The translations under genes and the position numbers were made by a program. The notes beneath the pieces were generated by a model, which was not told the DNA's origin, searched no databases, and saw nothing but the letters and a program-made list of their open reading frames with translations. This document shows positions 13,741-59,642 of a stretch of DNA of 64,000 bases, in pieces (positions within the stretch are counted from its first letter, which is position 1; every line of letters begins with the position of its first letter). Source of the DNA: an uncultured Methanoregulaceae archaeon (GTDB lineage Archaea; Halobacteriota; Methanomicrobia; Methanomicrobiales; Methanospirillaceae); assembly GCA_963717525.1 (NCBI GenBank), contig OY970343.1, positions 1,472,001 through 1,536,000 on the forward strand. Direction: 5' to 3'.

Positions 13741-13986
13741 TAACGATTGTTCTCACCTGATCCCATTTAAGTATATATCCTCCTGCACCCGGATTCTCGG
13801 GTTTTTTCGCAAATGTTCAAAGCATAAAACCCTGATTTATAAAAAGGGGGCGTATAGGCATCCCATGATGCCTGAACATGGTCAAATGACGAACATACCT
13901 GCATGGGTCAGGGATGAGGGAGCGGAAGTACGTGAACTCCAGGCCGGGCATCGCCCCTGCCGGGGAACCCGCATGGTTCGTGGGTC

Positions 13987-14800: not shown

Positions 14801-15233
14801 CGTTGATGCTTCTCAGGAGAACCTGAGCCGGGCTTTTTTGTTAATCTTTGGATAGGGATAACCCGGTGGGGGTCGGAAAATTGCCTTTGACCAAAAAAGT
14901 GCTTCAATGTACTTCCGGGATTTAAAAAGAGCTCTCTTTTGGTTCATATCTTTGATGCAGCTCCACTCTAAACACTATTTAAATAAGCGCTGATCCGGGC
15001 GTTGTACTTAAAACAGGGTAATATTTGCCCCAATCTCCAGTGGAAATAAAGGGGTATAAAAGGATGATCAATTTGCCGGATTGGCATAATATTCATTTTA
15101 CAAATATAAATTGAAAAAAGCAGCCCGCACGGGTGAAATAAAACCGGCATTGGTAAGTGCAGGGCACCGCAAGCGTTCCAACTCAGGCAATACACATATT
15201 GTGCCAAGAAGGCAGAATGTTTATAGCACAAAA

Positions 15234-15251
15234 TGTAAATTATATTTTACA
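15234..15251. promoter_or_regulatory. Palindrome TGTAAA-N6-TTTACA next to a TATA-like box upstream of the surface-protein gene
   Basis: tgtaaattatattttaca lies just downstream of tttatag (~15220). Confidence 0.4.
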
Positions 15252-15412
15252 AAAAGATGCGAGAAGCCACCATATCTCTTCCATGCGGTTGGTACCACTG
15301 CAACTCCGCGTTGGTAAGTTTACCTGGTAGGCGGCATCGCGAACAGGAATGATAGCATGTTGCACATGATAGGAGAGCACAGGATAGTTGATGAAAGTAT
15401 GAGTGATGCCCA

Positions 15413-17780
15413 ATGACCACCCGTCACATCCTCCTCATAGGATGCCTGATACTGGTTTTCATCGCCAGCACCGTGGTTGTCGCGGTTACACCTACGCCTA
15501 CTCCTACAACGGCTACACCTACACCTACTCCTACAACGGCTACACCTACACCTACTCCTACAACGGCTACACCTACGCCTACTCCTACAACGGCTACACC
15601 TACACCTACTCCTACAACGGCTACACCTACGCCTACTCCTACAACGGCTACACCTACACCTACTCCTACAACGGCTACACCTACGCCTACTCCTACGGCA
15701 ACACCGAATACGACTGTAACGGTAACACCGCTTGTTGCAACATTCACGGCATCGCCCATCTCGGGCACTGCACCCCTCACCGTGCAGTTTGAGGATACAT
15801 CCTCGGGATCCCCTACTACATGGGACTGGAATTTCGGAGACGGGGATTCGAGTACCAATGAAAACCCGTCATATGCGTACACGACCGCGGGAACCTACTC
15901 TGTATCCCTTACCATTGGAGATGGTGGTGTTCTTCCCAGCAGTACCAGCACTCAGACCACGACTATAACGGTGAATGCAGGAGCCACGGCAGTCCCTGTC
16001 GTGACGGGCGTCTCTCCGACATACGGCCCTGTTTCCACGAGCACTCCCGATAACTATCACCGGGACCGGCTTTGCCGGGGCAACGGCTGTAACTGTAGGC
16101 GGCACGGCAGCAACCAATGTCGTGGTTGTCAGCTCTACAGAAATCACCGCAACCACCCCGGCCAGTTCTACTGTTGGACAGGTGGATGTCCTCGTCACAA
16201 CACCGAGTGGCATATCCTCTTCAGTATCCGCTGACGAATACACCGTCCGCAGAGACAGCAACACCGCTTGTTGCAACATTCACGGCATCGCCCATCTCGG
16301 GCACTGCACCCCTCACCGTGCAGTTTGAGGATACATCCTCGGGATCCCCTACTACATGGGACTGGAATTTCGGAGACGGGGATTCGAGTACCAATGAAAA
16401 CCCGTCATATGCGTACACGACCGCGGGAACCTACTCTGTATCCCTTACCATTGGAGATGGTGGTGTTCTTCCCAGCAGTACCAGCACTCAGACCACGACT
16501 ATAACGGTAACACCGACCGCAACAGCAACACCGCTTGTTGCAACATTCACGGCATCGCCCATCTCGGGCACTGCACCCCTCACCGTGCAGTTTGAGGATA
16601 CATCCTCGGGATCCCCTACTACATGGGACTGGAATTTCGGAGACGGGGATTCGAGTACCAATGAAAATCCGTCATATGCGTACACGACCGCGGGAACCTA
16701 CTCTGTATCCCTTACCATTTGAGATGGTGGTGTTCTTCCCAGCGCTACCAGCACTCAGACCACGACTATAACGGTGAATGCAGGAGCCACGGCAGTCCCT
16801 GCCGTGACGGGCGTCTCTCCGACATACGGCCCTGTTTCCACGAGCACCCCATAACTATCACCGGGACAGGCTTTACCGGGGCGACTGCAGTAACTGTAGG
16901 CGGCACAGCAGCAACCAATGTCACGGTTGTCAGCTCTACAGAAATCACCGCAACCACCCCGGCCAGTTCTACTGTTGGACAGGTTGACGTCCTCGTCACG
17001 ACACCGAGTGGCATATCCTCTTCAGTATCCGCTGACGAATACACCTTCGCAGAGACAGCAACGACCGTCCCGTTGCCTCTCTTTATCGCCTCCCCGACAT
17101 CAGGAACTGCACCGTTGGATGTAACGTTCACGGATGAATCAACGGGCTCCCCGGCATCATGGAGCTGGGACTTCGGGGATGGCAATACCAGCACCCTGGA
17201 AAATCCGACGAATACCTACGCAAACGACGGGACGTACTCGGTGACCCTTACGGAAGAGAATTCGCTTGGCACAAACGCGACAACCATGACCGGATACATC
17301 GTAGTCGGATCTACGGCACCGGTTGCTTCATTCACGCGAATCGTCCCACTTCAGGCACCGCACCCCTCACCGTCCAGTTCACTGATCAATCCACCGGATC
17401 CCCCACCTCATGGGAATGGTCGTTTGGAGACGGGAGTACGAGCAGCCTGCAAAATCCGTCTGAAACGTACCAGAATGCAGGAACCTACACGGTCACCCTC
17501 ACCTCCTCAAACTCCGAAGGGAGCAGCACGAATACTGCTTCCCAGACCATATCGGTGGATCTCTGGAGCGGCCACAACCGTTCCCACTACGGTGTTCACG
17601 ACGGCCCCCACCTTTGCGGTCGGCGCTGAAGCCACAACCAGTTCCTCGGTTGATACCTGGCTTGCACAGCAGAACGCTGAAATCGCCACTCCCACAAAAA
17701 AGTCACCCGGATATGACGCCCTCGCTGCGCTCATCGGCTGTGGTGCTGTTGCCGGTATTGCCTTGCGCAGAAGGCATTAA
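15413..17780 (+). CDS. Cell-surface glycoprotein: signal peptide, PT repeats, PKD and IPT/TIG domains, PGF-CTERM-like anchor (frameshifted)
   Basis: W-x-W-x-FGDG PKD signatures (5 copies), 2 IPT/TIG repeats, C-terminus KSPGYDALAALIGCGAVAGIALRRRH. Confidence 0.88.
15488..15700 (+). repeat. 27-bp tandem repeat, about 8 copies, encoding TPTPTPTTA
   Basis: Unit acacctac(g/a)cctactcctacaacggct repeated. Confidence 0.95.
15724..17062 (+). repeat. Near-identical intragenic domain duplications (PKD x3 at ~15724, ~16260 and ~16527; IPT x2 at ~15972 and ~16775)
   Basis: Blocks of about 250-290 bp repeated almost base for base. Confidence 0.92.
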
Positions 17781-18065
17781 TCTCCCATCCTCTTTTCCCA
17801 AAGAACCGCAGGGAACATTTTCCACGCTCTATCCTTTGCGAAAATACGAGTGGTTTTACAGGGATCAGGGAGATTTCCCGATAGACCTGTCAAACGCTGC
17901 TCAAAGAATGAAGAGGAAAAAACCGTCCTGATACCCGGGGATCGCATCTTTTCACCGGTAAAGAAAATCTTCCGGGTCCTTTTTAAAAACCATCCGGGCC
18001 TGCAAGGCTCAACAAAGATATACGGTTGATTATTGAATATAATAAGTACGAGAAGGAGAGATCTG

Positions 18066-18740
18066 ATGAGTGACGACACCATGTATGATCAGCAGCCGCT
18101 GGGACCAGTTACTTTCGCAGAAAACCCCGAACCCCGGTGTCCCTGCCTCCTGCTGCTGGATACATCCGGTTCCATGGCGGGAAAGCCAATCGCAGAACTC
18201 AACGCCGGCCTGCGATCCTTTTACGAGGAACTCCAGAGTGATTCCCTCGCGGTAAAGAGAGTCGAGGTGGCACTGGTCTCCTTTGGGCCGGTCAGGGTCA
18301 TTTCAGAGTTCAACACCGCGGATTTCTTCCTTGATCCCACGCTCGAGGCAGAAGGTGACACTCCACTTGGGGAGGCAATCATCCAGGGAATCGATCTGGT
18401 GAGGAAACGCAAAGAGGAATACCGGGCAAACGGGATCTCCTTCTACCGGCCCTGGATCTTCCTGATCACCGACGGTTCCCCGACCGACGAGTGGCAGCGT
18501 GCCGCCGCGGCAGTCCGGGAGGGTGAAAGTTCGAAATCTTTTGCCTTCTTTGCGGTCGGCGTCCAGAACGCAGACATGTCGGTACTCCGGCAGATCACGG
18601 TCCGGCAGCCACTCAAGCTCCAGGGCCTCAAATTCCGGGAATTTTTCCAGTGGCTCTCCAATTCCATGAAATCAGCCTCCCGCAGCAATCCGGGAGACAG
18701 GATCCTGCTCACTCCACCTTCAGGGTGGAGCGAGATATGA
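18066..18740 (+). CDS. terY: TerY-type vWA domain protein (YegL-like)
   Basis: [24 protein letters not shown] motif, [19 protein letters not shown]. Confidence 0.92.
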
Positions 18741-44643: not shown

Positions 44644-45613
44644 CTATCCTTTTTTACCCAGAACCCGGATGATCGCATCGCCGAACTCCCGGGTCCCGGC
44701 CGATCCCCCGATGTCCCGGGTCCGGATACCGGACGAAAGAACCGTGGTGATGGCAGCCTCTAACCGGGCAGAACCTTCATTGTCCCCAAGGTAGGCGAGG
44801 AGCATCGCTGCGCTCCGCAGGGCTGCAACGGGATTTGCACTGTTTTTCCCGGCAATATCCGGGGCGCTGCCGTGGACCGGCTCAAACAAGGCATACCGGT
44901 CCCCGATATTTGCGCTCGGCACAAGACCCAAGCCCCCGACAAGGTAGGAGGAGACATCAGAGAGGATATCGCCAAAGATGTTCGTGGTCACGATCACATC
45001 GTATGCCCCGGGATGCTGGAGGATATCGAGACTGAGGGCGTCGATGAACTTGTCATTGTACAGTTACTCCGGCCTTTTTTGCCTCCTCAATACAGATATC
45101 CCGGAAGAAAACGTCGGATTTGAGCACATTTGCCTTGTGCCCGATGGTGAGTTTTCCCTGCCGCTGACGGGCACACCGGATCGCCGCCCGCGCAATTCGT
45201 TCGGTTCCTTTCCGGGTCACCACCCGGAGCGTGGTCGCACGATCAGGACCAATCTCCTCGATTCCTGAGTACAGCCCTTCGGTATTCTCCCTGACGATCA
45301 TCAGGTCAAAGCCGTCACCCCGGACCGGTCGCAGGTTTGCGAACAGGTCAAGCGCTTTCCTGATCCTCAGGACAATACTCTGGTAATCTTTCATCGGCGG
45401 AGTCGTGACCGCCCCGAAGAGGACGGCATCCGCCGTTTTGAGTTCGGAGATGTCGCCATCTGCACAGGGGCATCCGGTCTGCTCCCAGCGCCCGTACCCG
45501 ACCTCGACCGGGAAATATTCGTACTCGGGATGGAGCAGTTCGAGAGCCTGCTGCGCAACCGGGATCACCTCGTGGCCGATCCCGTCGCCTTCGACAATGG
45601 CGATCCGCGTCAT
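44644..45613 (-). CDS. aksF: Homoisocitrate / isopropylmalate dehydrogenase family (frameshift near 45060)
   Basis: GDGIGHEV, RENTEGLY, HKANV, NIFGDILSD, EPVHGSAPDIAG; operon context favours aksF over leuB. Confidence 0.8.
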
Positions 45614-46410
45614 TGTGCCCTCCACCGGCTGACCAGTTCCTGCACCGAACGTGCGATCTTTGCGGGACTTGCGCCCCAGTGGACGATCGCCCCGAATTTC
45701 CCCTTCCAGGTACCTAGTCCTTCCCGTTCAGACCGGCAACACCGGGCGATAAACGGTTCTTCTGCGACCTGCTCGAGGGGACAGATGTTTTCGAGCACAA
45801 AATCCGTCCCGTAGCACTCCGTGCAGAACTGTTTTGCCGTAAGACAGCCGGCTACCCGTTCGCCACCCTGCAGGGGATCGGCATCCAGTGTCCGTGTATA
45901 CCCGGCGGCCCGGCAGGGATAGACATCGGCAGGCACCGTTGTTATATCCCGGATATGGTGATCGAATACCACCGAGAGCTCCCCGAAGAGGCCGATCGCC
46001 TCCATCTCTTTCAAAGCCGCCGACAGGGTCGGCCGGGGCGGGAGAACATCGTAGACATGTACGGTGAGGAATCCCGAAAGATCGGGATCGAGCACAAACG
46101 TCATGTTCTCCTCAAGACCCGTGAAAACAGTACACCGGCACCCACTTTCTATCGCGAGACGCACCAGCCGGGCCCGGTCGTTGAGCTGCACTTTCTCCGG
46201 GTAATGACAGGCTTCCTCTGGTGTCGCCAGTATCCTCGACGAAATGATCTCCCGCATGACGTGATTTTTTGCCGGATCAAGGGAAACTTCGAGAAGTTCG
46301 CACCCCCGGTCTGTCTCCTTCAGGAGATACCGGCTCAGGGTATAGACCCGGTCGCCGCAGGGTCTGGCGGAGGCGACCCCGACAACCTTGCAGTGTTCAG
46401 GAAAGATCAC
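45610..46410 (-). CDS. Conserved hypothetical Cys-rich protein inside the aks operon
   Basis: GTGA/ATGA overlaps with both neighbours; YPC, GC, ICP, RCC and VHWG motifs. Confidence 0.8.
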   Translation of the reverse strand: MIFPEHCKVVGVASARPCGDRVYTLSRYLLKETDRGCELLEVSLDPAKNHVMREIISSRILATPEEACHYPEKVQLNDRARLVRLAIESGCRCTVFTGLEENMTFVLDPDLSGFLTVHVYDVLPPRPTLSAALKEMEAIGLFGELSVVFDHHIRDITTVPADVYPCRAAGYTRTLDADPLQGGERVAGCLTAKQFCTECYGTDFVLENICPLEQVAEEPFIARCCRSEREGLGTWKGKFGAIVHWGASPAKIARSVQELVSRWRAQ

Positions 46411-46877
46411 CGGTGAGCCCTCCAGTACTCGACAAGGCCGCCGGCGTAAAGGATCTCCTGCATACGGGGAGACAATGGGTGGATTGTATGCCGTTTCCCA
46501 CCAGTGTCTACCCAGCCACCCGACAGGTCGAATATAACCGGGCTTCCTTCTTCGCAGGCCAAGTCCGACTCGATGAGGGGGAGCCCGATATTGATCGCAT
46601 TCCGGAAGAAAATCCGTGCAAAAGACGGGGCGATGACAGCGACAACCCCGGCTTCCCGGAGGGCTAGGGCAGCCTGCTCCCTCGAAGAGCCGCACCCGAA
46701 ATTTTTACCGGCGACAATCACGGCCCCTTTGAGCCGGGGGGCAAGCGCGGGGTCGAGATCCTCCAATACGTGGGTTGTCCAGATGCTCCGGTCCTTGGTC
46801 CGCAGGTACCGGCCGGCGATGATGAGATCGGTATCAATATCCGCCGGGAGACACACGGCGGTTCCTCTGCCCTGCAT
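46407..46877 (-). CDS. aksE: Homoaconitase small subunit (LeuD/HacB family)
   Basis: DIDTD, GRYLRT loop, NFGCGSSREQA, FARIFFRNAIN. Confidence 0.85.
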   Translation of the reverse strand: MQGRGTAVCLPADIDTDLIIAGRYLRTKDRSIWTTHVLEDLDPALAPRLKGAVIVAGKNFGCGSSREQAALALREAGVVAVIAPSFARIFFRNAINIGLPLIESDLACEEGSPVIFDLSGGWVDTGGKRHTIHPLSPRMQEILYAGGLVEYWRAHR

Positions 46878-48088
46878 TATCCTGCCTCCGGCGAAGCGAT
46901 CTCCCCTTCAAGGGCGCTTGCTGCAGCTGTAGCGACAGAGCCAAGATAGATCTCCCCGCCGACACCCATACGGTTCCTGAAATTCCGGTTGGCAGTCGAG
47001 AGGCAGACCTCGCCTTCCCCGAGCACACCCATATGGTACCCGAGGCAGGGGCCGCACCCGGGCGTCCCGATGCTGCACCCGCCTCCAACGATATCGGCGA
47101 GCACCCCCGTGCGGATCGCCTTTTCGAGAACCAAGGCAGACGCCGGGACGACGATGGTCCGTACGGCCACCTTCCTGCCCCTGACCATCCGGGCGAACCG
47201 GGCGAGATCAGAATACCTGCCGTTCGTGCAGGTACCAACAAAGACCTGGTCAAGCGGCAGGCCTGCAAGGGTATCCACGGGCTTGACCGTGTCCACCCGG
47301 TGGGGGATAGCAACCAGCGGCACGATGTCGGCAAGATCCAGATCGAGTTCCTGACGGTACGAACACGGTGAGGCCTCCTGAGAGGAGACCTCATGCCCGT
47401 GCTCCTTCAGGTATCTGACGGTCACATCATCTGCATAAAAGAGCCCGGCCTTTGCCCCGGCTTCGACGGAAAGATTCGAGAGGACGAGGCGTTCGTCCAT
47501 GGAGAGGTGGCGCACTCCGTCCCCCACAAACTCGAGTGCCTGGTAGGTCGCCCCGTCCATGCCGAGTTTAGCCACGTAGGCAAGCGCGAGGTCCTTTGCT
47601 TCCGCCGCCCCCGTAAACCTCCCGGCCAGGTGGATACCCAACGATTCGGGGACACGGAACCAGGTCTCCCCGGTCAGCCAGATCGCTGCCATATCGGTTG
47701 CACCCACACCGGTAGCAAACGCCCCGAACGCCCCCAGCGTGACGCTGTGCGAGTCTGCCCCGACTACTATCTCACCGGGCAGGACTACCCCCTCCCCCAT
47801 CAGCTGGTGGCAGATCCCGCAACCGACATCGGAGAACTGCATGAAGGAGCTTCTCGCAAAATCCCTCAGCTCGTGCTGGAGGGTTGCCGTTGTGCCGTTG
47901 TTGGCCGGGGCGATATGATCAAACTGGATATAATACCCGGTCTCTTCTCCCAGCCGGTCTCCTCCCATCTCTTTCCAGGCTTCCAGAGCAAGGACGCCGG
48001 TCCCATCGTGGGCATATGCCCTGTCAACCTTCCGGTCGACGTATTCCCCTGCGGTTGCGCCAAGGATACGTTCGGAGAGCGTGCTCAT
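46877..48088 (-). CDS. aksD: Homoaconitase large subunit (LeuC/HacA family)
   Basis: GICHQ, GADSH, GTCTNG, GCGPCLG, STANRNF. Confidence 0.85.
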   Translation of the reverse strand: MSTLSERILGATAGEYVDRKVDRAYAHDGTGVLALEAWKEMGGDRLGEETGYYIQFDHIAPANNGTTATLQHELRDFARSSFMQFSDVGCGICHQLMGEGVVLPGEIVVGADSHSVTLGAFGAFATGVGATDMAAIWLTGETWFRVPESLGIHLAGRFTGAAEAKDLALAYVAKLGMDGATYQALEFVGDGVRHLSMDERLVLSNLSVEAGAKAGLFYADDVTVRYLKEHGHEVSSQEASPCSYRQELDLDLADIVPLVAIPHRVDTVKPVDTLAGLPLDQVFVGTCTNGRYSDLARFARMVRGRKVAVRTIVVPASALVLEKAIRTGVLADIVGGGCSIGTPGCGPCLGYHMGVLGEGEVCLSTANRNFRNRMGVGGEIYLGSVATAAASALEGEIASPEAG

Positions 48089-49216
48089 GCCGGGGTCTCC
48101 CGTTGCGCCCGCCGGATCAGTTTCCGGAGTATCTCGGGGGTGATGCTGCATTTCTGTTCGGAATGTTCCTTGACAAGGTCGAGGACGCGGCAGATCTGGG
48201 CCCCGGAGAGATCCTCGCCCAGTGACGCGATTACGTGCTCAAGCGCCTTTCTCCCGGTGTGCTTCCCAAGGATGAAGTGACGCTCACTGCCCACCAGGTC
48301 CGGGGGGAAGTACCTGGTACGTGGCAGGGTCTTCGAGGATTGCGGCGATGTGGATGCCACTCTCGTGCGAAAAGGCGAGTTCCCCTGTGACCGGCTTGTT
48401 CTTCGGGAGCGCTATACCTGAATACTTTTCCACCTTCCGGGAGAGGGCGAAGAGGTGCGAGAGGTCATACCGGTCGATGCCGCCCTTGGTTCGCAGGATG
48501 ACCAGTACCTCTTCAAGCGAGGCATTACCCGAACGTTCGCCAATACCGTTAACGGTCGTGTGCAGCTGGAAGGCCCCGGCCTGTGCCGCTGTGATCGTGT
48601 TTGCGACAGCGCAGCCCATATCGTTGTGGCAGTGGGCGCAGAACGGCCGGTCGACAGAAGAGACAAGATCGGTCATGATCGTGCGCATCTCGTCCGGGAT
48701 CAGGCATCCCACCGTATCGGCAAAACTGAGCAGAACAGCCCCGTGGTCGGCTGCCCTCCGGTATACTTCCTTGAGAAACACAAGGTCTGTCCGTGACGCG
48801 TCCTCTGCTGCAAACCGCACGGCAACCCCGTGGTCCCGGGCAAAATCAATCATCACAAGGGCATCCTCGAGCACCTTCTCCCGGGGTTTCTTGAACTTGA
48901 CCCGGACGTGGAGATCTGAGGTCGGGATAAAGATGGAGACCATGTCGACATCGCAGTCGATTGCTGTGGTGATATCCTCTTTTTTTGCCCGGGCAAAACC
49001 GCATATCCGGGCATCAAGCCCAAGGTTTGCGATGGTTTTTACACACTGTTTCTCGTTTTCAGAGACTGCCGGGAACCCGGCCTCGATTACTTCGACGCCG
49101 ACACAATCCAGTGTCCGGGCGATATCCACCTTCTCTTCGCAGGAGAATGACACGCCGGGTGTCTGTTCCCCGTCTCTCAGCGTTACATCACAGATCTCAA
49201 TATTCCACGGTTTCAT
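48085..49216 (-). CDS. aksA: Homocitrate synthase family (frameshift near 48315)
   Basis: DVTLRDGEQ, HCHND, GIGERSGN, HESGIH, ILGKHTG; no LeuA regulatory domain. Confidence 0.85.
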
Positions 49217-50468
49217 GGTGTGCTCCCTTGGGGCATTCCGCCTCCACGACAATGGTCTTCGGTGCATCCGGGATATGGATCACCTCGTGGAGGCGGCGTT
49301 CATCATTCGCATGACAGAGGACCGGGTCGGCCCAGCGGATGTAAGGGACCGGATCGCTCACCTTCTGACCACCGGTCATCGCGGCGCAGTGATTCTTCAT
49401 CACGATGCACAGGAGCGGGAGTCCCTTCTCATACACATCGATAAGGGCATTCAGGCCCGAGTGGAGCAGTGCGTAGTCGCCGATCAACGCCACGTGTGTG
49501 CTTCGTGCAGCGACCGCGATACTTGACCCCATACCATAGCTGGCAACACCCAGTCCATAGGGGGGTTTCAGCCCGAATACCGAGCAACCCGCGTCGCAGA
49601 TCAGGTGCATGTCCCGTCCTTTGAGGATATCCAGCAGGGGCCGGTACGGGCAGTCTAAACAGAACGTCCGGCCAAATCCCCGGTCTTTTTGTGATTCCGG
49701 CCGCCCCTGCGGTCCCGGTGGCAGGATAGCCCGGTGATCCCGGACAAAGGACCGGCCGTACTCCTTCACCTCATGGAACGGTGCAGCACGGGCCGGTACC
49801 GGGTTCACGGTCACGACCCGGGAGTCCCCCGGCGCCGGACCGGCGCCCAGGGTATCCCCCTTCCACCGGTTCAGGGGCGATGCGTCCGACCATGCAAACA
49901 TCGTCCTAGAGATCTCTGCAGCAGCAGTGACCCTGCCATGCATGGTCCAGCTCCGGTCGGCGAGTCTTCCCATACCCTCATTCCGGAGAGCCGGGATTAC
50001 CGTGACCTCAGCGTCCAGCAGCTGCGGCGTGAGCCGGAGCATAGCAACCCGGGAGAAGGTCTCCGATGCAGTCAGCGCTGCTTCAACCCCGGCAAAACAT
50101 GTGGTCTCGTCAGGTTCGATCACGGGAATCTCCGCCAGTTCCCCGTAATACCGGGAGTCCTGTGCCGTCTGGGAGCCTTTAGATTCGGGATCGTCACCGA
50201 CGACAAGAAGTACTCCACCCCGGATACCCTGCACCGTGGCCTGGACAAGCGGGTCGGCGCAGGCGTTCACGCCAACGTTTTTTATAATGACGGCAGCTCG
50301 TCTGCCGGCGAGAGAATCGCCCAGTGCATATTCGAGGGCGGTCTTTTCGTTTATGACAAACTCTGCCCGGGTTAATGTGCCAAGTTCCGTCACCGGGAAA
50401 CCCGGGACGGTATACTGCCGGTCCGTTCCGGCAGAGATCGCTGCAGCCAGCGCCCCGACTCCCTTCAT
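49197..50468 (-). CDS. Compact ThDP-dependent enzyme, IorA-like, with no beta subunit nearby
   Basis: PGFPVTE, NEKTALE, KNVGVN, SQTAQD, FCxxCPY, DAGC, and GDYALLHSG...N ThDP motif. Confidence 0.82.
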   Translation of the reverse strand: MKGVGALAAAISAGTDRQYTVPGFPVTELGTLTRAEFVINEKTALEYALGDSLAGRRAAVIIKNVGVNACADPLVQATVQGIRGGVLLVVGDDPESKGSQTAQDSRYYGELAEIPVIEPDETTCFAGVEAALTASETFSRVAMLRLTPQLLDAEVTVIPALRNEGMGRLADRSWTMHGRVTAAAEISRTMFAWSDASPLNRWKGDTLGAGPAPGDSRVVTVNPVPARAAPFHEVKEYGRSFVRDHRAILPPGPQGRPESQKDRGFGRTFCLDCPYRPLLDILKGRDMHLICDAGCSVFGLKPPYGLGVASYGMGSSIAVAARSTHVALIGDYALLHSGLNALIDVYEKGLPLLCIVMKNHCAAMTGGQKVSDPVPYIRWADPVLCHANDERRLHEVIHIPDAPKTIVVEAECPKGAHHETVEY

Positions 50469-51433
50469 TCATCCCTCCCGGGCACAAGATCGCAGCCTGC
50501 ACAGGTCGTGCACATGGTAAGAGCACCGGCGGTATCCAGTCCGGCACGGGCAAGGGCCTGGCGGTGTATGGCAAAGAGTTTCCTGAGCCTCCCGGCAGAT
50601 GGCCGGGGTCTCCCGGCACATCCCGCCACCGGGTTGAGCGGCCGGAGCACCGGGATCACCCCACGCGACGTGAGCCGGTTGATGCAGGCCTCCATCTCTG
50701 CATCAGTCTCTCCAAGCCCTACGATAACATTGGAAAATACCCGGCCCTTACCGAAGAGTTCCACGGACCGGTCGAGAACCCGCCACAGGCAGTCGTAGTC
50801 AAGACCCGGGCACATCTCTGCAAAGAGCTCCGGGGTGGCCGCCTCGATATTGAATTTAACCTCTGTCACACCGAGGGCATGGAGCTTATCCGGGGTCTGG
50901 TCGGTCGGGTAGATTGACACACCAATGGGCAGGCCAAAGAACTTCAGGTGACCGATGACCTCACAGACATAGGACTCCTCCTCCCCGATGCTCTCCAGGA
51001 CACCGCTCGTGAGCGATATAGCGCCGACCCGGTGCCGGACCGATTCGACGAGATCCATGATCTCCTTTACGGTTTTACGTTTACCGGCAAGCCGGGGGAC
51101 AGAGCAGTAGCGGCAGGAGAAGATGCAGCCCTCCGTAACGGTAATAAAAGCCTGGTCCGGGCAGTGAAGCCCCGGCTGGAGGAGCCGGCCCGAAATCTGC
51201 CGGTCCTCAAAAAAGAGATCGGCAACCCCGCCCCCCCGGTGGGCGATCTCAACAGGGGACGCCGGGTTGATCGCAAGCTTGACCCGGTGGCTGCCCATGG
51301 CAAAAAAGACCGAGCCTTTTCCACCAGCGCCCGGGCCTGCCGTGGATTTTGCAAGGTAATCCTCTGCTGGTTCGCCGCTGAGCCGGGCAGAGCCGGCCTC
51401 GAGCAGCCGGGCCTTCAGTTCTTCCCACTGCAT
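50465..51433 (-). CDS. Radical SAM protein, biotin-synthase-related
   Basis: CIFSCRYC; NIE, VIVGLGET; C-terminal CTTCAGCD. Confidence 0.88.
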   Translation of the reverse strand: MQWEELKARLLEAGSARLSGEPAEDYLAKSTAGPGAGGKGSVFFAMGSHRVKLAINPASPVEIAHRGGGVADLFFEDRQISGRLLQPGLHCPDQAFITVTEGCIFSCRYCSVPRLAGKRKTVKEIMDLVESVRHRVGAISLTSGVLESIGEEESYVCEVIGHLKFFGLPIGVSIYPTDQTPDKLHALGVTEVKFNIEAATPELFAEMCPGLDYDCLWRVLDRSVELFGKGRVFSNVIVGLGETDAEMEACINRLTSRGVIPVLRPLNPVAGCAGRPRPSAGRLRKLFAIHRQALARAGLDTAGALTMCTTCAGCDLVPGRDE

Positions 51434-52311
51434 AGTTCCAGCGCCTCCTCGTACCGGATGAAGAACGGCAGGGCAGCCACCGCCCCGGTGATCCCCCGCC
51501 CGTTCATCACAATGCGGAGATGGGGATCTTTGAGAGTCTGCACACGATCCGGAGTCACTTCCCCGCGTTTTACGTCCTTTGCGTAATCCATGAGCTCGTC
51601 TGACAAGGAAAAACCGGTATAGACAGCCATGCCGGTCTTCTCTGAAAGGGTATATTTTTTGAGCAACTCGCAAAACCGCCTAACAAGTTGTTCCGGTACT
51701 GTCGTGGCAAATTCAGCGACAAGACTCACGCAGTTCTTGGTCCGGTACGCCACCGGGAAGAGCTGGACAATCGTATGCGAGAGATAGACAGATTGTTCAT
51801 CCTCAACCGCCCTTGCGATATTGTGGACAAGTGTCCACGTCGCTCCCTCTTCTGCCGTGTCGGTATCATCCACCCCAATCAGAATCCGCTGCCGCCGGGG
51901 CAGCCAGAGCGTGGCACCTGCCACTTTCCCCCCGCCGGAAGGATCACACTGTTCCCGCAGCACACCCCGTGCGGCAGCACGGCAGGAGGTTGCACCCACG
52001 CCACCGCCACCCATACCGATGTAGGTCACCGCAATCTCATTCCTGCTTACCGAGACCCCGGAGATTCCTGCGGGGAACCGGGATCCTTCGAGCGCAAGAT
52101 CGACGGCACCGGGACGGAGCAGGTACCGGGATGTCGATCCCACGCACCTGACACTCTTCACCAGAGGGCTCTGTGCATAATGATGCTGGGTCCACATTGC
52201 GCCCCCGATACAATCGAAGAATTCGATCAGCTCGACCTGGCTCGCGGTCTCATCCGCCACCGCAACGATCCGGGGATACCGGATCACGTACGGATCAGAG
52301 ATGCTCGCCAT
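51415..52311 (-). CDS. Methanogenesis marker protein 11-like (TiaS-related DDTD domain), copy A
   Basis: GMGGGGVGA, IGVDDTDT..GATW, RTKNC, GRGITGAVAA. Confidence 0.75.
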   Translation of the reverse strand: MASISDPYVIRYPRIVAVADETASQVELIEFFDCIGGAMWTQHHYAQSPLVKSVRCVGSTSRYLLRPGAVDLALEGSRFPAGISGVSVSRNEIAVTYIGMGGGGVGATSCRAAARGVLREQCDPSGGGKVAGATLWLPRRQRILIGVDDTDTAEEGATWTLVHNIARAVEDEQSVYLSHTIVQLFPVAYRTKNCVSLVAEFATTVPEQLVRRFCELLKKYTLSEKTGMAVYTGFSLSDELMDYAKDVKRGEVTPDRVQTLKDPHLRIVMNGRGITGAVAALPFFIRYEEALELCSGKN

Positions 52312-53251
52312 ACAGCCCCGCCGCCTCGATTCCCCGGTCTGCCCACAGCACTGCACCGAGCGCTCCGATCCGCCCTTTCCTCCCATTATGGTCGAGATAC
52401 TCGATGCCGAGCCGCTCTGCCTCTTCCTGTGCATTTTCAACGGTAAGGATCTCCGTCTTGATGGCTTTCATGAACGGGGACTCCTGCCCGGTCCCGATAC
52501 CCCGCGAGAATGCGATGCCGGTATCCTTCGAGAAGGTATGATCTTCCACGAACGTGCAGACGAACTCACGAAGTGCACTGATGCTTTCTGGCCGGGCGGC
52601 AAAGGTGAGGGCGGAACCGACACAGTTTGTCGTTTTGCTGGGGACCGCCGGGTTGAGCTGGACAAGCCGCATGGTGAGGAACTCAACGCCTTCGATATGG
52701 CAGGCCTCCGCACATTTTAAGGCCATCACCCATGTGGCACCCTCCTGCCTTGTATCCGTATCATCGATCCCAAACGAGATCTTCTCGTACCTGGGGGATA
52801 CGATCCGGACGTGGTTGGTCCGTGCACCCCCTACCTTAAGGTCTTCTTCTGCCGGGTATTCCGCCCGGATAACCCCCGGCGCCTGAGGGAGGCATGCAGC
52901 AATACCAACACCAGCGCCAGCGATACCTGCCCATGTGGTGATCACCTCATCACCCTTCACTTCCACCGCTTCCAGTGCCTGGCCGCCGATAGTCCCCGCG
53001 GCTGCCCCGAAATTGACCGGGTGGTGGCCGAGGCGTGCCTGCATGGTCATCGAGATCCCTTCCACGGCACACGCTGCCACTGCACCACCGGCGCGGGACC
53101 GGTTCATGGCATCCCACTCAATCGTTCCCCGGGCGTGACACTGCTCAAGGATCTCGGCACGCCCTGCCCTCTCGTCAACCATCACCAGAAATTTCTTTGA
53201 GAAGAGCGGGCCGAACCGCTGCTTCACGCCATCGGGTGTAAGTATGATCAT
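52295..53251 (-). CDS. Methanogenesis marker protein 11-like paralogue, copy B
   Basis: GIAGAGVG, FGIDDTDT..GATW, QLNP...KTTNC, GRIGALGA. Confidence 0.75.
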   Translation of the reverse strand: MIILTPDGVKQRFGPLFSKKFLVMVDERAGRAEILEQCHARGTIEWDAMNRSRAGGAVAACAVEGISMTMQARLGHHPVNFGAAAGTIGGQALEAVEVKGDEVITTWAGIAGAGVGIAACLPQAPGVIRAEYPAEEDLKVGGARTNHVRIVSPRYEKISFGIDDTDTRQEGATWVMALKCAEACHIEGVEFLTMRLVQLNPAVPSKTTNCVGSALTFAARPESISALREFVCTFVEDHTFSKDTGIAFSRGIGTGQESPFMKAIKTEILTVENAQEEAERLGIEYLDHNGRKGRIGALGAVLWADRGIEAAGLYGEHL

Positions 53252-53341: not shown

Positions 53342-54226
53342 TTAAAGGACCTTTGCCAGTTCAATCTTGAACGGGCCAAGACTGCCGCCAAAATTACCTG
53401 CCGAGATAAACTTCACGCCCGGCACCTTGACAGCGGCCCTGATACCTGCCCCCATCGCAGCGGCAACGCTCTTCTCATCAACGCCATCGATAACGATCTC
53501 GTAGACTGCCTTGACGCCTGCCGGAACCTTGCTGTCGGGAACTTTTTCGCGGAGCGTGGGGCAGTACTTCTCGTTGGTGGAGGCGGTCATGAATTTGTAC
53601 TTCAGGCTGCCGACCTTGGAACCGCTTGCGACAATCCCGCCGGGGAAACTTGTGATAACTCCTTTCACATCGGCAATCGCGTCTGATGCTGCCTGGGCCG
53701 CCACGAGAGCTGCCATCTGGTTCTCGCCCATGATAAAGAAGTTGCCGCCGGCAACACCCTTCACGATGCCGAATTCCTCTTCCCCGACATACTCACCGTT
53801 CATGATCGGGATCGCCCAGCACTTCCTGCCGCCTACCTCTTTCTGGTACTCGTACCCGTCACCGAAGAAATGCAGTTTTACCGGGATCTTCTCCTCGGCA
53901 TCGGTGATGCCGTTGAAAACCGCTGTCGTAGGTGCCGTCAGCACGCACTCGGCGAGGCGTTCCACGACCTGCTCCTTGAGTTTCTTCTTGCTGGCGCAGA
54001 TGAGGATTGCAACGCCCGGCCTGCCGTCAGGTGTCTCGCTGCCGGGAAGAACACACTCGATGCCCGCTTCACAGGGGCAGCCGATCGCAGAGGTTGCAAA
54101 CCCGGTTGCCTCGGTTGCTGACTTGAGTGCCCAGTCTTTTGTCACTGCGGTGATGATCACCCGGCAGACCCAGGTTGGGAATGCCTCCGCATAGGTGTTG
54201 TCAATTGTTACGCCGTTGACTTCCAT
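53342..54226 (-). CDS. ftr: Formylmethanofuran:H4MPT formyltransferase
   Basis: [38 protein letters not shown]. Confidence 0.96.
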
Positions 54227-54784: not shown

Positions 54785-55957
54785 ATGGCATTATTTCCAA
54801 AGTTTTCCAAAAAGAGGGATGGTGTCAACGTTGTGATGGAGCAGCGCCTCCTTCAGAACGTGAACAACCTGATTCTGAATTCAGAGACCTGCACGGGATG
54901 CGGTATCTGTGTCGAGTCCTGTCCGGAGGATGCAATAGTCCTCGGACTTGTCGGTGCAGCCCGCCGCGGTGCCATCAACTACGCGACGCCTATCGATGTT
55001 GACGAGACCAAGTGCTCGTACTGCGGTGTCTGCGTGATCATGTGCCCGTTCAATGCATTGACTCTGAAAGTCGACAATCAGGAGCGGCTTCCCATTATTG
55101 AAAAAGAGGGATTCCCGCAGTATGACATGAAGGCAGAGATCAATGACGAAAAGTGCGTAAAGTGCACGATCTGCGAAGAGGTCTGCCCGCGTGACGCAAT
55201 CGACCGGAATGTCCCCGCATATGCAGGGACGTACAAGGGACCGGTTGCCGGGGCAAAGGATCGCCAGGCCGCGATCACGACAAAGACCACCTTCACCGTC
55301 GACAAGGAGAAATGCTCCCTGTGCGGCATCTGCGGTGCGCTCTGTCCTGCCATCAGGGTCAAGCACAAAGAATTTACTGCCGAAGCAGGGAAAGTTGAGG
55401 GTGATGTGATCTGGGACGAGACCAAGTGCGACGCCTGCAAGGTGTGCGTAGAAGCCTGCCCCGAGGAATGCATTACCATCGAACGCGAAGTCATATCCGA
55501 CAAGGTAGATGGCAAGGTCAGCATTGTCCAGGACAACTGCTGCACATGTACCTGGTGCTCGCGCAACTGCCCGACCGAGGCAATTACCGTTGAGAAGATC
55601 TTCGAAGGCGACATCGAATTCCACGCCGAAAAGTGTCCCGGCGGCTGTTCGACCTGCGCCGATATCTGCCCGGCAAATGCAATCTATCTTCCGAGCGAGA
55701 AGCCGGCAGCAGACATGAAAGGCGAGATCGAGCCCAGCATTGCCGTCAACAAGGACTACTGCATTCTCTGTGGTGCCTGCGTGAATGCCTGCCCCGGTGA
55801 AGATATCATCATCCTCCAGCGGACCGGCATCCGGATGAAAGGAACGGAGACGGACCTCTTCAAGAAGATCAAGGAGAAACTCTTTGCGAAGAGAACCTCG
55901 AAGGTGAAGGAAGGCATTGCCGGACAGGTCGGACTAAAAATGATGGAGAAGGCGTGA
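54785..55957 (+). CDS. fwdF: Polyferredoxin, FwdF/FmdF type
   Basis: Eight CxxCxxCxxxCP-type motifs; lies directly before hdrC. Confidence 0.85.
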   Translation: MALFPKFSKKRDGVNVVMEQRLLQNVNNLILNSETCTGCGICVESCPEDAIVLGLVGAARRGAINYATPIDVDETKCSYCGVCVIMCPFNALTLKVDNQERLPIIEKEGFPQYDMKAEINDEKCVKCTICEEVCPRDAIDRNVPAYAGTYKGPVAGAKDRQAAITTKTTFTVDKEKCSLCGICGALCPAIRVKHKEFTAEAGKVEGDVIWDETKCDACKVCVEACPEECITIEREVISDKVDGKVSIVQDNCCTCTWCSRNCPTEAITVEKIFEGDIEFHAEKCPGGCSTCADICPANAIYLPSEKPAADMKGEIEPSIAVNKDYCILCGACVNACPGEDIIILQRTGIRMKGTETDLFKKIKEKLFAKRTSKVKEGIAGQVGLKMMEKA

Positions 55958-55969
55958 GGGAGGACGAAC

Positions 55970-56551
55970 ATGGCAAGATCAAAAGGTTACCCGGAAGCGC
56001 TGGAGAAAAAACTCCACGATCAGCGGTTTTACCGTGAGGATTCTACACCCGACTTCACAAAAAAGGTCGAGGCATCTTCACGCACCATTGCCCACATGTG
56101 CTACCAGTGCGGTACCTGCACCGGATCGTGCCCGTCAGCACCCCGGAGCACCTACCGCATCCGCAAGTTCATGCGGAGAGCAGTCCTTGGGCTCGAGAAT
56201 GAGGCTCTCACCGATCCCGATCTCTGGCTCTGCACCACCTGTTACAGCTGCACCGACCGGTGCCCGCGTGACATCGCACCCACCGACGTTATTATGTCCA
56301 TGAGGAACATGGCATTCACCCGCGATATCATACCGGTGAACTTCCTCAAGACCGTGCAGGCGATCTACAGCTCCGGCCACGGTGTGCCCAATAACGATGT
56401 CAACCGTGCAGCCCGGGAGAGGCTCGGACTCACCCGCGACCCGCCGACCACCCACATGTATCCTGAATACATGCCGGCGATCAGGAAGATCATCGACCAC
56501 TACAACCTCAAGGCAAATGCCGACAGGATTGTCAAGGAACGGGAGGGATAA
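55970..56551 (+). CDS. hdrC: Heterodisulfide reductase subunit C
   Basis: CYQCGTCTGSCP, LWLCTTCYSCTDRCPR. Confidence 0.96.
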   Translation: MARSKGYPEALEKKLHDQRFYREDSTPDFTKKVEASSRTIAHMCYQCGTCTGSCPSAPRSTYRIRKFMRRAVLGLENEALTDPDLWLCTTCYSCTDRCPRDIAPTDVIMSMRNMAFTRDIIPVNFLKTVQAIYSSGHGVPNNDVNRAARERLGLTRDPPTTHMYPEYMPAIRKIIDHYNLKANADRIVKEREG

Positions 56552-56557
56552 GGGAAC

Positions 56558-57481
56558 ATGTCAGAATCCAAAGCAAACCACACGTTCGCGTTATACCTTG
56601 GCTGCATTGCACCGAACCGGTACCCGGGCGTGGAATCTGCAACCATCAAGGGATGCAAGAAACTGGGCGTTGATCTTGTTCCCCTCAAGGGAGCAAGCTG
56701 CTGCCCGGCCCCCGGTGCATTCGGTTCCATCGACCTGAACGTCTTCTATGCAATGGCAGCACGCAACCTTGTGCTCGCCGAGCAGATGAAGACCGATATC
56801 GCCCTTGTCTGCAACGGCTGCTACAAGTCGATCTGGGAAGTCAACCACAAGCTCAAGCACAACCAGGATCTCCGCGATGGCGTCAACGAAGTACTCAAGG
56901 AAGTTGACATGGAGTTCAAGGGCACCATCAATGTCTATCACGTGGCGGAACTCCTCTATAATGAGAAATTCATAGGGGTCGATAAAGTCAAGGACTCCGT
57001 CGTCAACCCCCTGACCGGTGCACGCATTGCCGTCCACTACGGCTGCCACCTGACTAAGCCCCATAAGGACCGTGAGTTCGAAAAGGAGGTCATGTTAAAC
57101 ACCGAGCACCCGACCTGGATGGAAGAACTGGTCGCAGCCCTCGGTGCCACGCCGGTCGAGTACCGCAACAAGATGCAGTGCTGCGGTGCCGGCGGCGGTG
57201 TCCGCGGGTACGACATCGTCCACTCGCTGGATATAACGAACGAGAAGCTGATCAACCTCAAAGAGGAAAAGGTGGATGCGCTGACCGACATCTGCCCGTT
57301 CTGCCAGCTCCAGTTCGACCGCGGCCAGATCGAGATCAAGGAAAAGTTCGGTGTCGAGTACAACTTACCGGTGCTGCACTTTGCCGAGCTGCTCGGGCTG
57401 GCACAGGGAATGAGCCCGCAGGAACTCGGGCTTGACCTGCACGGGATCAGCTGCGAACCGTTCCTGCAGAAGGTGCTGTGA
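56558..57481 (+). CDS. hdrB: Heterodisulfide reductase subunit B
   Basis: SCCPAPG, CNGC, HYGCH, CCGAGGGVR, CPFCQLQFD. Confidence 0.96.
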   Translation: MSESKANHTFALYLGCIAPNRYPGVESATIKGCKKLGVDLVPLKGASCCPAPGAFGSIDLNVFYAMAARNLVLAEQMKTDIALVCNGCYKSIWEVNHKLKHNQDLRDGVNEVLKEVDMEFKGTINVYHVAELLYNEKFIGVDKVKDSVVNPLTGARIAVHYGCHLTKPHKDREFEKEVMLNTEHPTWMEELVAALGATPVEYRNKMQCCGAGGGVRGYDIVHSLDITNEKLINLKEEKVDALTDICPFCQLQFDRGQIEIKEKFGVEYNLPVLHFAELLGLAQGMSPQELGLDLHGISCEPFLQKVL

Positions 57482-57491
57482 GGTGGGGAAG

Positions 57492-59642
57492 ATGGTTGAA
57501 AAGAAGAAAACAACTACCAAAAAGACCGAGACCAAGAAGCAGGACACAAAAAAGGAGGCTCCCGTGAAACAGGAAGTCAAAAAACAAGCTCCCGCACCGG
57601 CAGCAAAGGCAGTCGCAGCACCCGGCGCCACCACCAAGCAGGAAGCCCGGATCGGTGTCTTCATCTGCCATTGCGGTACCAACATCGCCGGTTCAATGAA
57701 TATCCCGGCCGTGCAGGAATATGCAAAAACCATCCCGAATGTGGCCTATGTTGACAACTACAAGTATATGTGCTCGATGCCCGGGCAGACGGTGATTAAC
57801 AAGGCAATCAAGGACAACAAGCTGACCGGTGTCGTTGTTGCCGCTTGTTCCCCGCGCCTCCACGAGCCGACATTCAGGACCGCCACCAAAGAGGGTGGCC
57901 TCAACCCGTTCCGGTTCGAGATGGCAAACATCCGTGAGCAGAACTCATGGGTGCATATGCATGACAATGCAGGGTCAACCGACAAAGCAAAGGACGCAAT
58001 CAGGATCGCCGTTGCAAAGGCGTCACTCCTCCAGGACCTCTTCCCGAAAACCGTGCCGGTCGAGAAGGCCGCGATGGTAGTCGGAGCCGGTGTTGCCGGC
58101 ATGCAGGCAGCCCTTGACCTTGCAGCATCAGGAATCAAGACCTATCTCATCGAATCAACGCCAAGTATCGGCGGCAGGATGTCCCAGCTCGACAAGACCT
58201 TCCCGACGCTTGACTGTTCCCAGTGTATCCTCACACCGAAGATGGTGGATGTAGGGCGGAGCAAGGATATCGAGCTCCTGACCTATTCCGAAGTCGATAA
58301 CGTGGAAGGCTATATCGGCAACTTCGATGTCACCATCCGCAAGAAAGCGCGTGGTGTCCTCACTCCCGCAGAAGCGGAAGCCCGTGGGATTGTCGGCGGC
58401 GGCTGTAACGGCTGCGGTGACTGCGAGACAATCTGCCCGGTCATCAAGCCCAATGTGTTCGAAGTCGGGATGAAGCCCCGGAAGGCTATTTATATCAACC
58501 ACCCGCAGGTTGTTCCCCTTATCTACACGATTGACTTTGATTCCTGTATCAAGTGTGGACTGTGCGTGACCGCATGTGGTCCCGAAAAGAAGGCAATCGA
58601 CCTCGAATCAAAGGACGAGTTCATGAAAGTCAAAGTCGGGACGGCAATCCTCGCCACCGGCTACGATATCTTCCCCATCGAGAAAAAAGAAGAATGGGGA
58701 TACAAGCGGTTCGAGAACGTTATCACCAGTCTCGAATTCGAGCGGCTCATCTGCGCATCCGGCCCGACCGGCGGTTACCCTGTCCGCCCGAGTGATGGTG
58801 AGAAACCAAAAAGAGTCGCATTCGTGCTCTGTGCCGGCTCTCGTGACAATACGGGTGTCGGCAAACCCTACTGTTCACGGTTCTGCTGCATGTATTCACT
58901 GAAACATGCCCACCAGCTTGTTGAAAAGATGCCCGGCTGCGTTCCCTATATCTTCTACATGGATATCCGGTCATTCGGCAAGGCGTACGAGGAGTTCTAC
59001 TACCGTATCCAGGATGAAGGCGCGAAGTTCATCCGCGGCCGGGTCGCAAACATCCTCGAGGACCCCAAGACCAAGAACCTCCATGTCTATGCCGACGACA
59101 CCCTGCTCGACCGCCCGGTCGATATGGAAGTCGATCTTGTCGTGCTCGCAGCAGCAATCCAGCCCGCGAGCGACACGGAAAGGACACGGAGACTTTTCGG
59201 TGTTTCCTGTACTGGCGACGGCTGGCTCCAGGAAGCCCACCCGAAACTGAACCCATGCGGAACCACCACGGCCGGTGTCTTCCTTGCCGGTGTCTGCCAG
59301 GGCCCGAAGGATATCCCGGACACGGTAGCATCTGCCGAAGGCGCAGCATCTGCGGCAAGCATCCCGATCCACAAGGGAGAAGTCGAACTCGAGCCGTACT
59401 TCGCTACCTGTATAGAAGAGAAATGTGCAGGCTGCGGCATGTGCGTGAACCTCTGCCCCTACAGTGCCCTTTCTCTCGTAGAGAAGGACGGACGACAGGT
59501 CATGCAGGTCACCGAGGCCAAATGTAAGGGCTGTGGTACCTGCGGCGGTTTCTGTCCCGGTGGCGCAATCTGGATGAACCACTTTGCAACCCCGCAGATC
59601 GTTGCCCAGATCGATGCGTTCCTGCTCGGGGGTGAGCAGTAA
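57492..59642 (+). CDS. hdrA: Heterodisulfide reductase subunit A
   Basis: CHCGTNI, GAGVAG, KTFPTLDC, YCSRFCCMY, GPKDIP, ferredoxin inserts. Confidence 0.97.
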   Translation: MVEKKKTTTKKTETKKQDTKKEAPVKQEVKKQAPAPAAKAVAAPGATTKQEARIGVFICHCGTNIAGSMNIPAVQEYAKTIPNVAYVDNYKYMCSMPGQTVINKAIKDNKLTGVVVAACSPRLHEPTFRTATKEGGLNPFRFEMANIREQNSWVHMHDNAGSTDKAKDAIRIAVAKASLLQDLFPKTVPVEKAAMVVGAGVAGMQAALDLAASGIKTYLIESTPSIGGRMSQLDKTFPTLDCSQCILTPKMVDVGRSKDIELLTYSEVDNVEGYIGNFDVTIRKKARGVLTPAEAEARGIVGGGCNGCGDCETICPVIKPNVFEVGMKPRKAIYINHPQVVPLIYTIDFDSCIKCGLCVTACGPEKKAIDLESKDEFMKVKVGTAILATGYDIFPIEKKEEWGYKRFENVITSLEFERLICASGPTGGYPVRPSDGEKPKRVAFVLCAGSRDNTGVGKPYCSRFCCMYSLKHAHQLVEKMPGCVPYIFYMDIRSFGKAYEEFYYRIQDEGAKFIRGRVANILEDPKTKNLHVYADDTLLDRPVDMEVDLVVLAAAIQPASDTERTRRLFGVSCTGDGWLQEAHPKLNPCGTTTAGVFLAGVCQGPKDIPDTVASAEGAASAASIPIHKGEVELEPYFATCIEEKCAGCGMCVNLCPYSALSLVEKDGRQVMQVTEAKCKGCGTCGGFCPGGAIWMNHFATPQIVAQIDAFLLGGEQ

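Follow-up and report, generated by a model that had tools for sequence, protein, structure and literature searches.

A ferredoxin-less, domain-reduced relative of IorA encoded with aks genes in Methanomicrobiales: a candidate 2-oxosuberate-decarboxylating enzyme of coenzyme B synthesis

Introduction

No methyl-coenzyme M reductase (MCR) works without coenzyme B, and the decarboxylation of 2-oxosuberate, one of the steps in the synthesis of this cofactor, has long been known from labelling work. A passage of a recent paper (PMC12068725, 2025) describes the coenzyme B pathway as still unknown, and section 14.5 of PMC3087415 names, of coenzyme B synthesis, the Aks steps alone. Our full-text literature searches found no gene for 2-oxosuberate decarboxylation and no paper naming methanogenesis marker protein 11, a neighbour of the gene described here. 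That gene lies on the minus strand at 49197..50468 of the window, by which we mean the whole stretch of 64,000 nucleotides that was analysed (positions 1,472,001 to 1,536,000 of contig OY970343.1, assembly GCA_963717525.1, from an uncultured Methanoregulaceae archaeon), and it encodes a protein of 423 amino acids (aa) that resembles IorA, the catalytic subunit of indolepyruvate oxidoreductase, and is predicted to use thiamine diphosphate (ThDP). We think it rather likely that this protein is a 2-oxosuberate-decarboxylating enzyme of coenzyme B synthesis; we infer its substrate, product and role, for which it is put forward as a candidate. The source genome is a single contig (C1) of 2.29 Mb, 87% complete, and its closest database proteins are named Methanoregula.

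Results

At E <= 1e-20, the frame at 49197..50468 finds a match in 119 of 121 Methanomicrobia genomes, at least three of which (G025, G046 and G090) match through canonical IorA only, and nearly all of the best 120 database matches have the same length of 423 aa. These two facts show that the frame is not a product of chance, and it encodes a real domain-reduced IorA-like ThDP protein. Its layout comprises a PYR domain (residues ~1-150), a reduced domain II up to ~249 and a PP domain (~265-417). The PP domain is the sole one recognized by the Pfam scan (TPP_enzyme_C, PF02775, residues 288-369, E 1.7e-9, 38 bits, cut-off 21.9), which gave no match to TPP_enzyme_M, TPP_enzyme_N or Fer4, and the best NCBIfam model is IOR_alpha (TIGR03336), with 144.3 bits in two stretches vs a cut-off of 650.9. 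An earlier note, made from the sequence letters alone, had described a shortened IorA-like ThDP enzyme with a pyrimidine-site glutamate, a GD...N motif and a CxxC/DAGC set, and each of these could be located: the alignment places N40-E41-K42 and E46 in the PYR domain and G330-D331 ... N359 (GD-X27-N) and T365-G366-x-Q368 (TGGQ) in the PP domain, and the cysteines are C270-x-x-C273, C291-D-A-G-C295 and C412. The residues E41, E46, GD331-X27-N359 and TGGQ are kept in all 18 Methanomicrobiales homologues and in 14 to 16 of the 16 from other classes. Cysteine is found at 270, 273, 295 and 412 in 18/18 and 15/16 of these homologues, respectively (33/34 overall), and the four positions align with cysteines upstream of the ferredoxin domain in the genome's own 590-aa IorA, that is, with the proximal [4Fe-4S] ligands. 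Domain II is a degenerate remnant in the 423-aa protein and has gone altogether in relatives of 370-390 aa. The C-terminal ferredoxin motif, which the same note had reported as missing, was found neither in the query nor in its 34 context-linked homologues (C..C..C...C pattern, present once in the own IorA), and the alignment with the own IorA stops short of its ferredoxin domain.

The gene is the fifth of a minus-strand series that reads ftr, mmp11b, mmp11a, radical SAM, ThDP protein, aksA-like, aksD-like, aksE-like, DUF7714 and aksF-like (Table 1). The order mmp11a, radical SAM, ThDP, aksA, aksD, aksE is kept without exception in the 18 Methanomicrobiales loci sampled, which represent six families. 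DUF7714 and aksF are also in the locus, and mmp11b and ftr are present in 13/18 and 15/18, respectively. A profile search of genome contigs with an mmp11 alignment returned 80 loci, all of them from Methanomicrobiales and including Methanoregula, Methanolinea, Methanoculleus, Methanospirillum and Methanocorpusculum; the class I orders Methanococcales, Methanobacteriales and Methanopyrales lay outside its coverage. Among these named loci, mmp11a, radical SAM and ThDP genes follow one another in 69 of the 74 with enough flank, and all seven downstream genes are present in 61 of the 66 with more flank. Outside the class, where 16 loci were sampled, the homologues have 476-544 aa and an intact domain II, and the named members of this long form belong to Methermicoccaceae, Methanosarcinaceae and Methanotrichaceae. 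In ten of the 16 loci the gene adjoins mmp11a, the stop and start codons of the two often overlapping, and in six it adjoins aks genes, one locus having both; in a single locus it adjoins neither, and the protein there belongs to another clade. Adjacency of the ThDP and aks genes was seen in three further lineages beyond Methanomicrobiales.

The reading of the downstream genes as Aks, and with it the suggestion of the earlier note that the adjacent pathway makes long-chain 2-oxodiacids, is borne out by a census of the genome, which holds three genes of the HCS/IPMS (homocitrate synthase/isopropylmalate synthase) family, two aconitase-type pairs and two Iso_dh genes. The copies outside the cluster are LeuA-like, LeuCD-like and LeuB, which leaves the genome no other candidates, so that the cluster copies are Aks by elimination. 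The small subunit of the cluster carries a YLRT loop and matches 2pkp ('Homoaconitase small subunit') better than isopropylmalate isomerases (98.8 bits); its paralogue has FLTI in place of YLRT. In work by Drevland from 2008, a YLRT-type loop of the small subunit reportedly sets specificity.

A homologue of the ThDP gene was also found closing a biotin operon. In an archaeal genome in which family searches found no McrA, mmp11 or DUF7714 (G147; locus L061, G147:C1:1759000-1778999), the minus-strand genes at 8803-18728 are bioB, BioU-like, bioF, bioD, aksA, aksD, aksE, aksF and ThDP, with scores of 383 bits for bioB (cut-off 225), 438 for bioF (426) and 139 for bioD (83). The ThDP homologue of this operon has 476 aa and is without all four cysteines. 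A second genome of the same family keeps the order aks-ThDP, its contig ending at aksA. Biotin synthesis requires a seven-carbon (C7) pimeloyl unit, and since 2-oxosuberate minus CO2 gives the required C7 unit, the operon points to 2-oxosuberate as the substrate. The pimelate routes known to us are BioC/BioH, BioI/BioW and BioZ, and to our knowledge, no search of the literature having been aimed at pimelate, a route of Aks plus a ThDP enzyme is not among them. Biotin was considered as the fate of the C7 product in the source genome as well and was rejected, because bioF, bioB, bioD and bioU were not found there (genome 87% complete).

The other line of evidence comes from one genus, a member of which is named Methanocorpusculum petauri. 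Three of its genomes (G025, G046 and G090; 95-99% complete) are without the ThDP gene and have one aconitase-type large subunit each, vs two in each of the two genomes of the genus that carry the gene, and their counts of HCS-family genes are 2, 1 and 2, respectively, vs 3 and 3. The genomes and loci lacking the ThDP gene (these three and L144, L146 and L150) keep mmp11b, mmp11a, radical SAM and DUF7714 and are without homoaconitase. The loss of the ThDP and homoaconitase genes together, while mmp11, radical SAM and DUF7714 stay, suggests that Aks plus the ThDP enzyme form a carbon-skeleton module separate from a later one. It may be that organisms with these Methanocorpusculum-like genomes rely on a C7 or coenzyme B precursor from outside.

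The AlphaFold2 model of the 423-aa protein, built with a 59-sequence alignment, has a pLDDT of 95.7 and a pTM of 0.94. Alpha chains of 2-oxoacid:ferredoxin oxidoreductases (OFORs) cover residues 1-249 of the model with Z scores of 20.9-22.9 (VIA); in the pairwise comparisons by VIA-align, 6n2n_A gave a Z of 22.9 over 244 aligned residues (rmsd 2.9) and 5b47_A a Z of 22.4, and the OFOR beta chain 5b48_B was superposed on residues 265-417 (Z 13.4, 152 aligned, rmsd 3.0). As modelled, the protein has the folds of domain I (PYR) and domain VI (PP) of the OFORs. In whole-chain comparisons the highest-ranking structures are ThDP decarboxylases and lyases of the single-chain type (Foldseek E 1e-15 to 1e-12; VIA Z 24-27 over 314-329 residues), and they rank so high because they too hold PYR and PP in one chain and in the same order. 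An assignment to the single-chain decarboxylases on Foldseek grounds was set aside, since the OFOR halves are split over chains and this biases whole-chain scores. Searched against the PDB, the family profile gave only marginal matches to oxalyl-CoA decarboxylase and 2-hydroxyacyl-CoA lyase (HACL), with an E of 3e-6 to oxalyl-CoA decarboxylase, and no OFOR chain at E 0.001, although the fold search did recover OFOR chains. Judged by its sequence, the 423-aa protein is kin to IorA and the OFORs rather than to the decarboxylase family. An ESM Atlas look-up returned archaeal clusters with TPP or IorA names only.

In a FastTree phylogeny of 154 sequences, the short forms make up one clade (support 100) on a long stem of 1.32, and both they and 15 of the 16 context-linked long forms fall outside the 94-row clade that contains canonical IorA (support 94). 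The grouping with canonical IorA that the earlier note had named as evidence against its proposal was thus not observed. Neither was a second counter-sign of the note, a remote IorB partner: the canonical IorA of this genome is encoded elsewhere (590 aa, 834.9 bits to TIGR03336) with IorB adjoining, all five PF01558 (POR-gamma) genes, the nearest ~75 kb off, stand beside a PP-domain gene of their own, and no orphan IorB was left in the genome. No iorB neighbour was found either, as had been noted, PF01558 matching none of the nine cluster proteins scanned. Other ferredoxin-less IorA-like clades were considered as class I methanogen forms and discarded, these clusters being bacterial (Thermoactinomycetaceae).

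Distribution was counted throughout in the same sample of 250 genomes of the phylum. DUF7714 is confined in it to f1-f7, f10, f14, f24, f28 and f30, which are precisely the families in which the ferredoxin-less ThDP form occurs, the Cys-less form of f19 being one further case. McrA occurs also in f12 (5/5), f16 (3/4), f15 (17/29), f20 and f29. The distribution of mmp11 is wider than that of the ThDP form: family f8 has it in 11 of 36 genomes, mostly McrA-less ones, in which it has a radical SAM relative, rather than the ThDP protein, as its partner. Eight loci (L158-L165, in G162, G178, G301, G130, G150, G173, G317 and G206) hold an mmp11 above the TIGR03280 cut-off and a radical SAM relative of 344-359 aa, the tblastn match to the latter being clear in five of the eight.

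The features of the cluster are collected in Table 1. The stop codon of the radical SAM gene overlaps the ATG of the ThDP gene (ATGA), and the radical SAM protein is weakly LipS2-like and variant_rSAM-like, below cut-offs. The overlap with aksA that had been noted is real and is probably shorter than claimed: the longest aksA open reading frame (ORF) starts at 49267 and would overlap the ThDP gene by 71 nt, while the ATG at 49216-49214 yields a typical N-terminus, MKPWNIEICDVTLRDGEQ, and an overlap of 20 nt with the ThDP gene, whose TGA lies at 49199-49197.

Table 1. Features of the minus-strand cluster, in window coordinates
Feature	Position	Strand	Product length, evidence and remarks
Ftr (formylmethanofuran-H4MPT formyltransferase)	53342..54226	-	Upstream neighbour; family scans
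mmp11b (mmp11 paralogue)	52295..53251	-	TIGR03280 185 bits, below cut-off
mmp11a (methanogenesis marker protein 11; TiaS TCKD/FLD-like)	51415..52278	-	TIGR03280 334 bits, cut-off 256
Radical SAM protein	50465..51436	-	Likely start M80 of long ORF; CIFSCRYC motif, C-terminal CTTCAGC motif
ThDP/[4Fe-4S] IorA-like protein	49197..50468	-	423 aa, ATG start; Pfam, NCBIfam, alignments, fold model
aksA-like, homocitrate-synthase family	48085..49216	-	Frameshifted near 48300-48330; relatives 381-424 aa
aksD/hacA-like homoaconitase large subunit	46877..48088	-	Family scans, genome census
aksE/hacB-like homoaconitase small subunit	46407..46877	-	YLRT loop; best PDB match 2pkp, 114.6 bits
DUF7714 protein	45610..46404	-	PF24830 283 bits; distantly ComA/XcbA-like, NF052538 46 bits, below cut-off 150
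aksF-like isopropylmalate/homoisocitrate dehydrogenase	44644..45625	-	Frameshifted near 45055-45063; relatives 318-385 aa

Both aksA and aksF are split by a frameshift in the assembly and are intact in relatives. McrA, just outside the window (C1:1536637), is a 415-aa open frame vs 555-596 aa in most relatives, and the third HCS-family gene (~C1:310210-311103) also looks broken. Because several genes are broken and the single contig is 87% complete, the frameshifts are probably assembly indels, and aksA and aksF are thus probably affected by assembly error rather than being pseudogenes. Of the remaining genes, DUF7714 is a candidate for a later step of coenzyme B synthesis, and Ftr is probably no member of the pathway. 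Divergent from ftr, the plus strand carries at 54785-59642 a FwdF-like polyferredoxin (390 aa, 237 bits vs a cut-off of 375) followed by more ORFs, possibly a formylmethanofuran dehydrogenase operon. A third mmp11-like gene is encoded at C1:723795-724961 (L070, 1290-2459 minus), its 389-aa product having 126 bits to TIGR03280 and an N-terminal helix-turn-helix domain of the TrmB/IclR type. A complex prediction for the ThDP protein and mmp11a scored 0.00 in both runs, which counts neither way.

Discussion

The interpretation of the 423-aa protein as an enzyme of 2-oxodiacids is supported by comparative evidence, namely the synteny across orders, the biotin-aks operon and the joint loss with homoaconitase, and the latter two, which are independent of each other, suggest 2-oxosuberate as the substrate. 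The protein is a member of a methanogen-centred branch of the IorA/OFOR family in which the ferredoxin domain and the CoA-binding IorB partner have been lost, as has most of domain II in Methanomicrobiales, and in which the ThDP site is retained together with one [4Fe-4S] site. The substrate of the 423-aa protein would most likely be 2-oxosuberate, the end product of the elongation by AksA/D/E/F encoded immediately downstream, and its ThDP-dependent decarboxylation would give a seven-carbon unit, either 7-oxoheptanoate or a ThDP-bound equivalent, destined for the 7-mercaptoheptanoyl part of coenzyme B. Decarboxylation to 7-oxoheptanoate is in our opinion the most economical prediction. The conserved Fe-S cysteines imply that the enzyme may not be a simple non-oxidative decarboxylase, and the Cys-less form of the biotin operon implies that the cluster would not be needed for the core reaction of the family. 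A broader proposal, which we advance with much more reserve and regard as a possibility, is that one family serves two cofactors, decarboxylating 2-oxosuberate for coenzyme B in class II methanogens and, in its Cys-less form together with AksADEF, for the pimeloyl unit of biotin, and that the whole operon from mmp11b to DUF7714 represents the unsolved coenzyme B pathway. The Fe-S-bearing ThDP enzyme would then hand its C7 product to sulfur-inserting and threonine-ligating or phosphorylating enzymes.

The cysteines are also where a competing explanation begins. The protein could be an oxidative 2-oxosuberate:acceptor oxidoreductase, in which electrons would pass from the [4Fe-4S] cluster to an external ferredoxin or to the radical SAM protein, and a thiol, phosphate or sulfur donor would trap pimeloyl-ThDP without release of an aldehyde. 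We judge this unlikely, although it accounts for the retention of the four proximal-cluster cysteines in 18/18 and 15/16 homologues, for a sequence kinship with OFORs and IorA instead of the decarboxylases, and for the translational coupling to the gene of a radical SAM protein whose C-terminus bears an additional cysteine motif; it would also suit the biotin operon, BioF being generally known to take an activated pimeloyl thioester. The gene, however, has neither in it nor beside it a CoA-binding domain III, an IorB or a ferredoxin domain, and the homologue of the biotin operon has dispensed with all four cysteines. Furthermore, labelling work by White from 1989 is reported to describe a non-oxidative decarboxylation to 7-oxoheptanoate. 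Less probable still is that the substrate is another 2-oxoacid, in a cofactor pathway of methanogens whose defining members are mmp11 and the radical SAM protein, the closeness of the aks genes reflecting shared regulation only. Such a pathway would agree with the coupling to mmp11a, and not to aks, in 10 of the 16 loci from other orders and with the occurrence of the mmp11 and radical SAM pair in McrA-less genomes, but it is at odds with the aks adjacency in three further lineages, with a biotin-aks operon that has no mmp11 and with the loss of the ThDP gene alongside homoaconitase in genomes where mmp11, radical SAM and DUF7714 stay.

The two remaining alternatives are very improbable. The public annotation as IorA alpha subunit, like the rank of IOR_alpha as the best named family match, would make the protein an ordinary catalytic subunit of an indolepyruvate or aryl-pyruvate oxidoreductase that uses an IorB and a ferredoxin encoded elsewhere; we give this hardly any credence, given that the score is 144 bits vs a cut-off of 651, that a canonical IorAB pair is present elsewhere in the genome, that all five POR-gamma genes stand beside PP-domain genes of their own and that the short forms constitute a separate clade with a support of 100. 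We attach just as little weight to the idea that the protein serves the enzymes next to it as an Fe-S carrier or as a scaffold without catalytic activity, as might be imagined from the loss of domains relative to IorA, because the residues for cofactor binding and catalysis show strict conservation from order to order.

Several observations weigh against assigning the decarboxylation of 2-oxosuberate to the 423-aa protein. Proximal-site cysteines, as seen in 33/34 homologues, are typical of oxidoreductases and not of simple decarboxylases. A fused ComDE sulfopyruvate decarboxylase is encoded in the same genome (contig position 108206) and could in principle catalyse the 2-oxosuberate step. The complete biotin-aks operon was seen in one genome only, and the joint loss with homoaconitase is probably a single evolutionary event. 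In the 250-genome sample, DUF7714 was not found in the MCR-bearing families f12, f15, f16, f20 and f29; the ThDP query had no match at E <= 1e-10 in f16 and f20 and gave low-scoring matches in f12, f15 and f29, mostly listed without lengths, the single f15 match with a listed length sitting in an IorA-length frame of 635 aa. The ThDP family is therefore not universal among MCR-bearing archaea, and in the four f12 and f16 genomes that were checked two large subunits of the IPMI/HACN type are carried by each. Within a search that had class I methanogens outside its range, the protein is accordingly not present in every maker of coenzyme B. Conversely, the presence of mmp11 and radical SAM genes in McrA-less genomes means that this module is not strictly tied to coenzyme B.

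Assignment of the protein to 2-oxosuberate decarboxylation would nevertheless have consequences. As the Aks elongation steps alone have assigned genes, the gene of the 423-aa protein is a concrete candidate for the decarboxylation step, open to test and better than any other so far, and the conserved operon around it probably holds other missing steps of coenzyme B synthesis. This would open the pathway to Methanosarcina genetics, to in vitro reconstitution and to the search for methanogen-specific inhibitor targets. In addition, the G147 operon suggests how some archaea may make the pimeloyl moiety of biotin, via 2-oxoacid elongation.

Among the systems already described, the best whole-chain structural matches of the protein are PDC, IPDC (1ovm), AHAS, 2-hydroxyacyl-CoA lyase (8vza) and HKA synthase (8x3x), from which it differs in being without a full middle (TH3) domain and in having Fe-S cysteines that are absent there. 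With ComDE of the coenzyme M pathway it would share the character of a ThDP-dependent non-oxidative decarboxylase and an analogous step from 2-oxoacid to aldehyde before thiol formation, but ComDE belongs to a different ThDP family, and neither TIGR03846 nor TIGR03845 was among the NCBIfam matches of the 423-aa protein. The OFORs, such as those of Sulfolobus (5b47/5b48), the Magnetococcus OGOR (6n2n) and the Methanosarcina acetivorans PFOR (9bt4), have the same folds of domains I (+II) and VI, whereas the 423-aa protein fuses both halves in one chain and has no domain III and no delta or ferredoxin subunit in its operon. The closest sequence family is IorA (TIGR03336), which has in common with it the PYR and PP domains, the GD-X27-N motif and the four aligned cysteines of the proximal cluster; with 423 aa vs 590, the protein described here is without the 2x[4Fe-4S] ferredoxin domain and IorB, has a reduced domain II and belongs to another operon. 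It is a variant, reduced in its domains, of an enzyme family already known, and its role is probably new and long sought.

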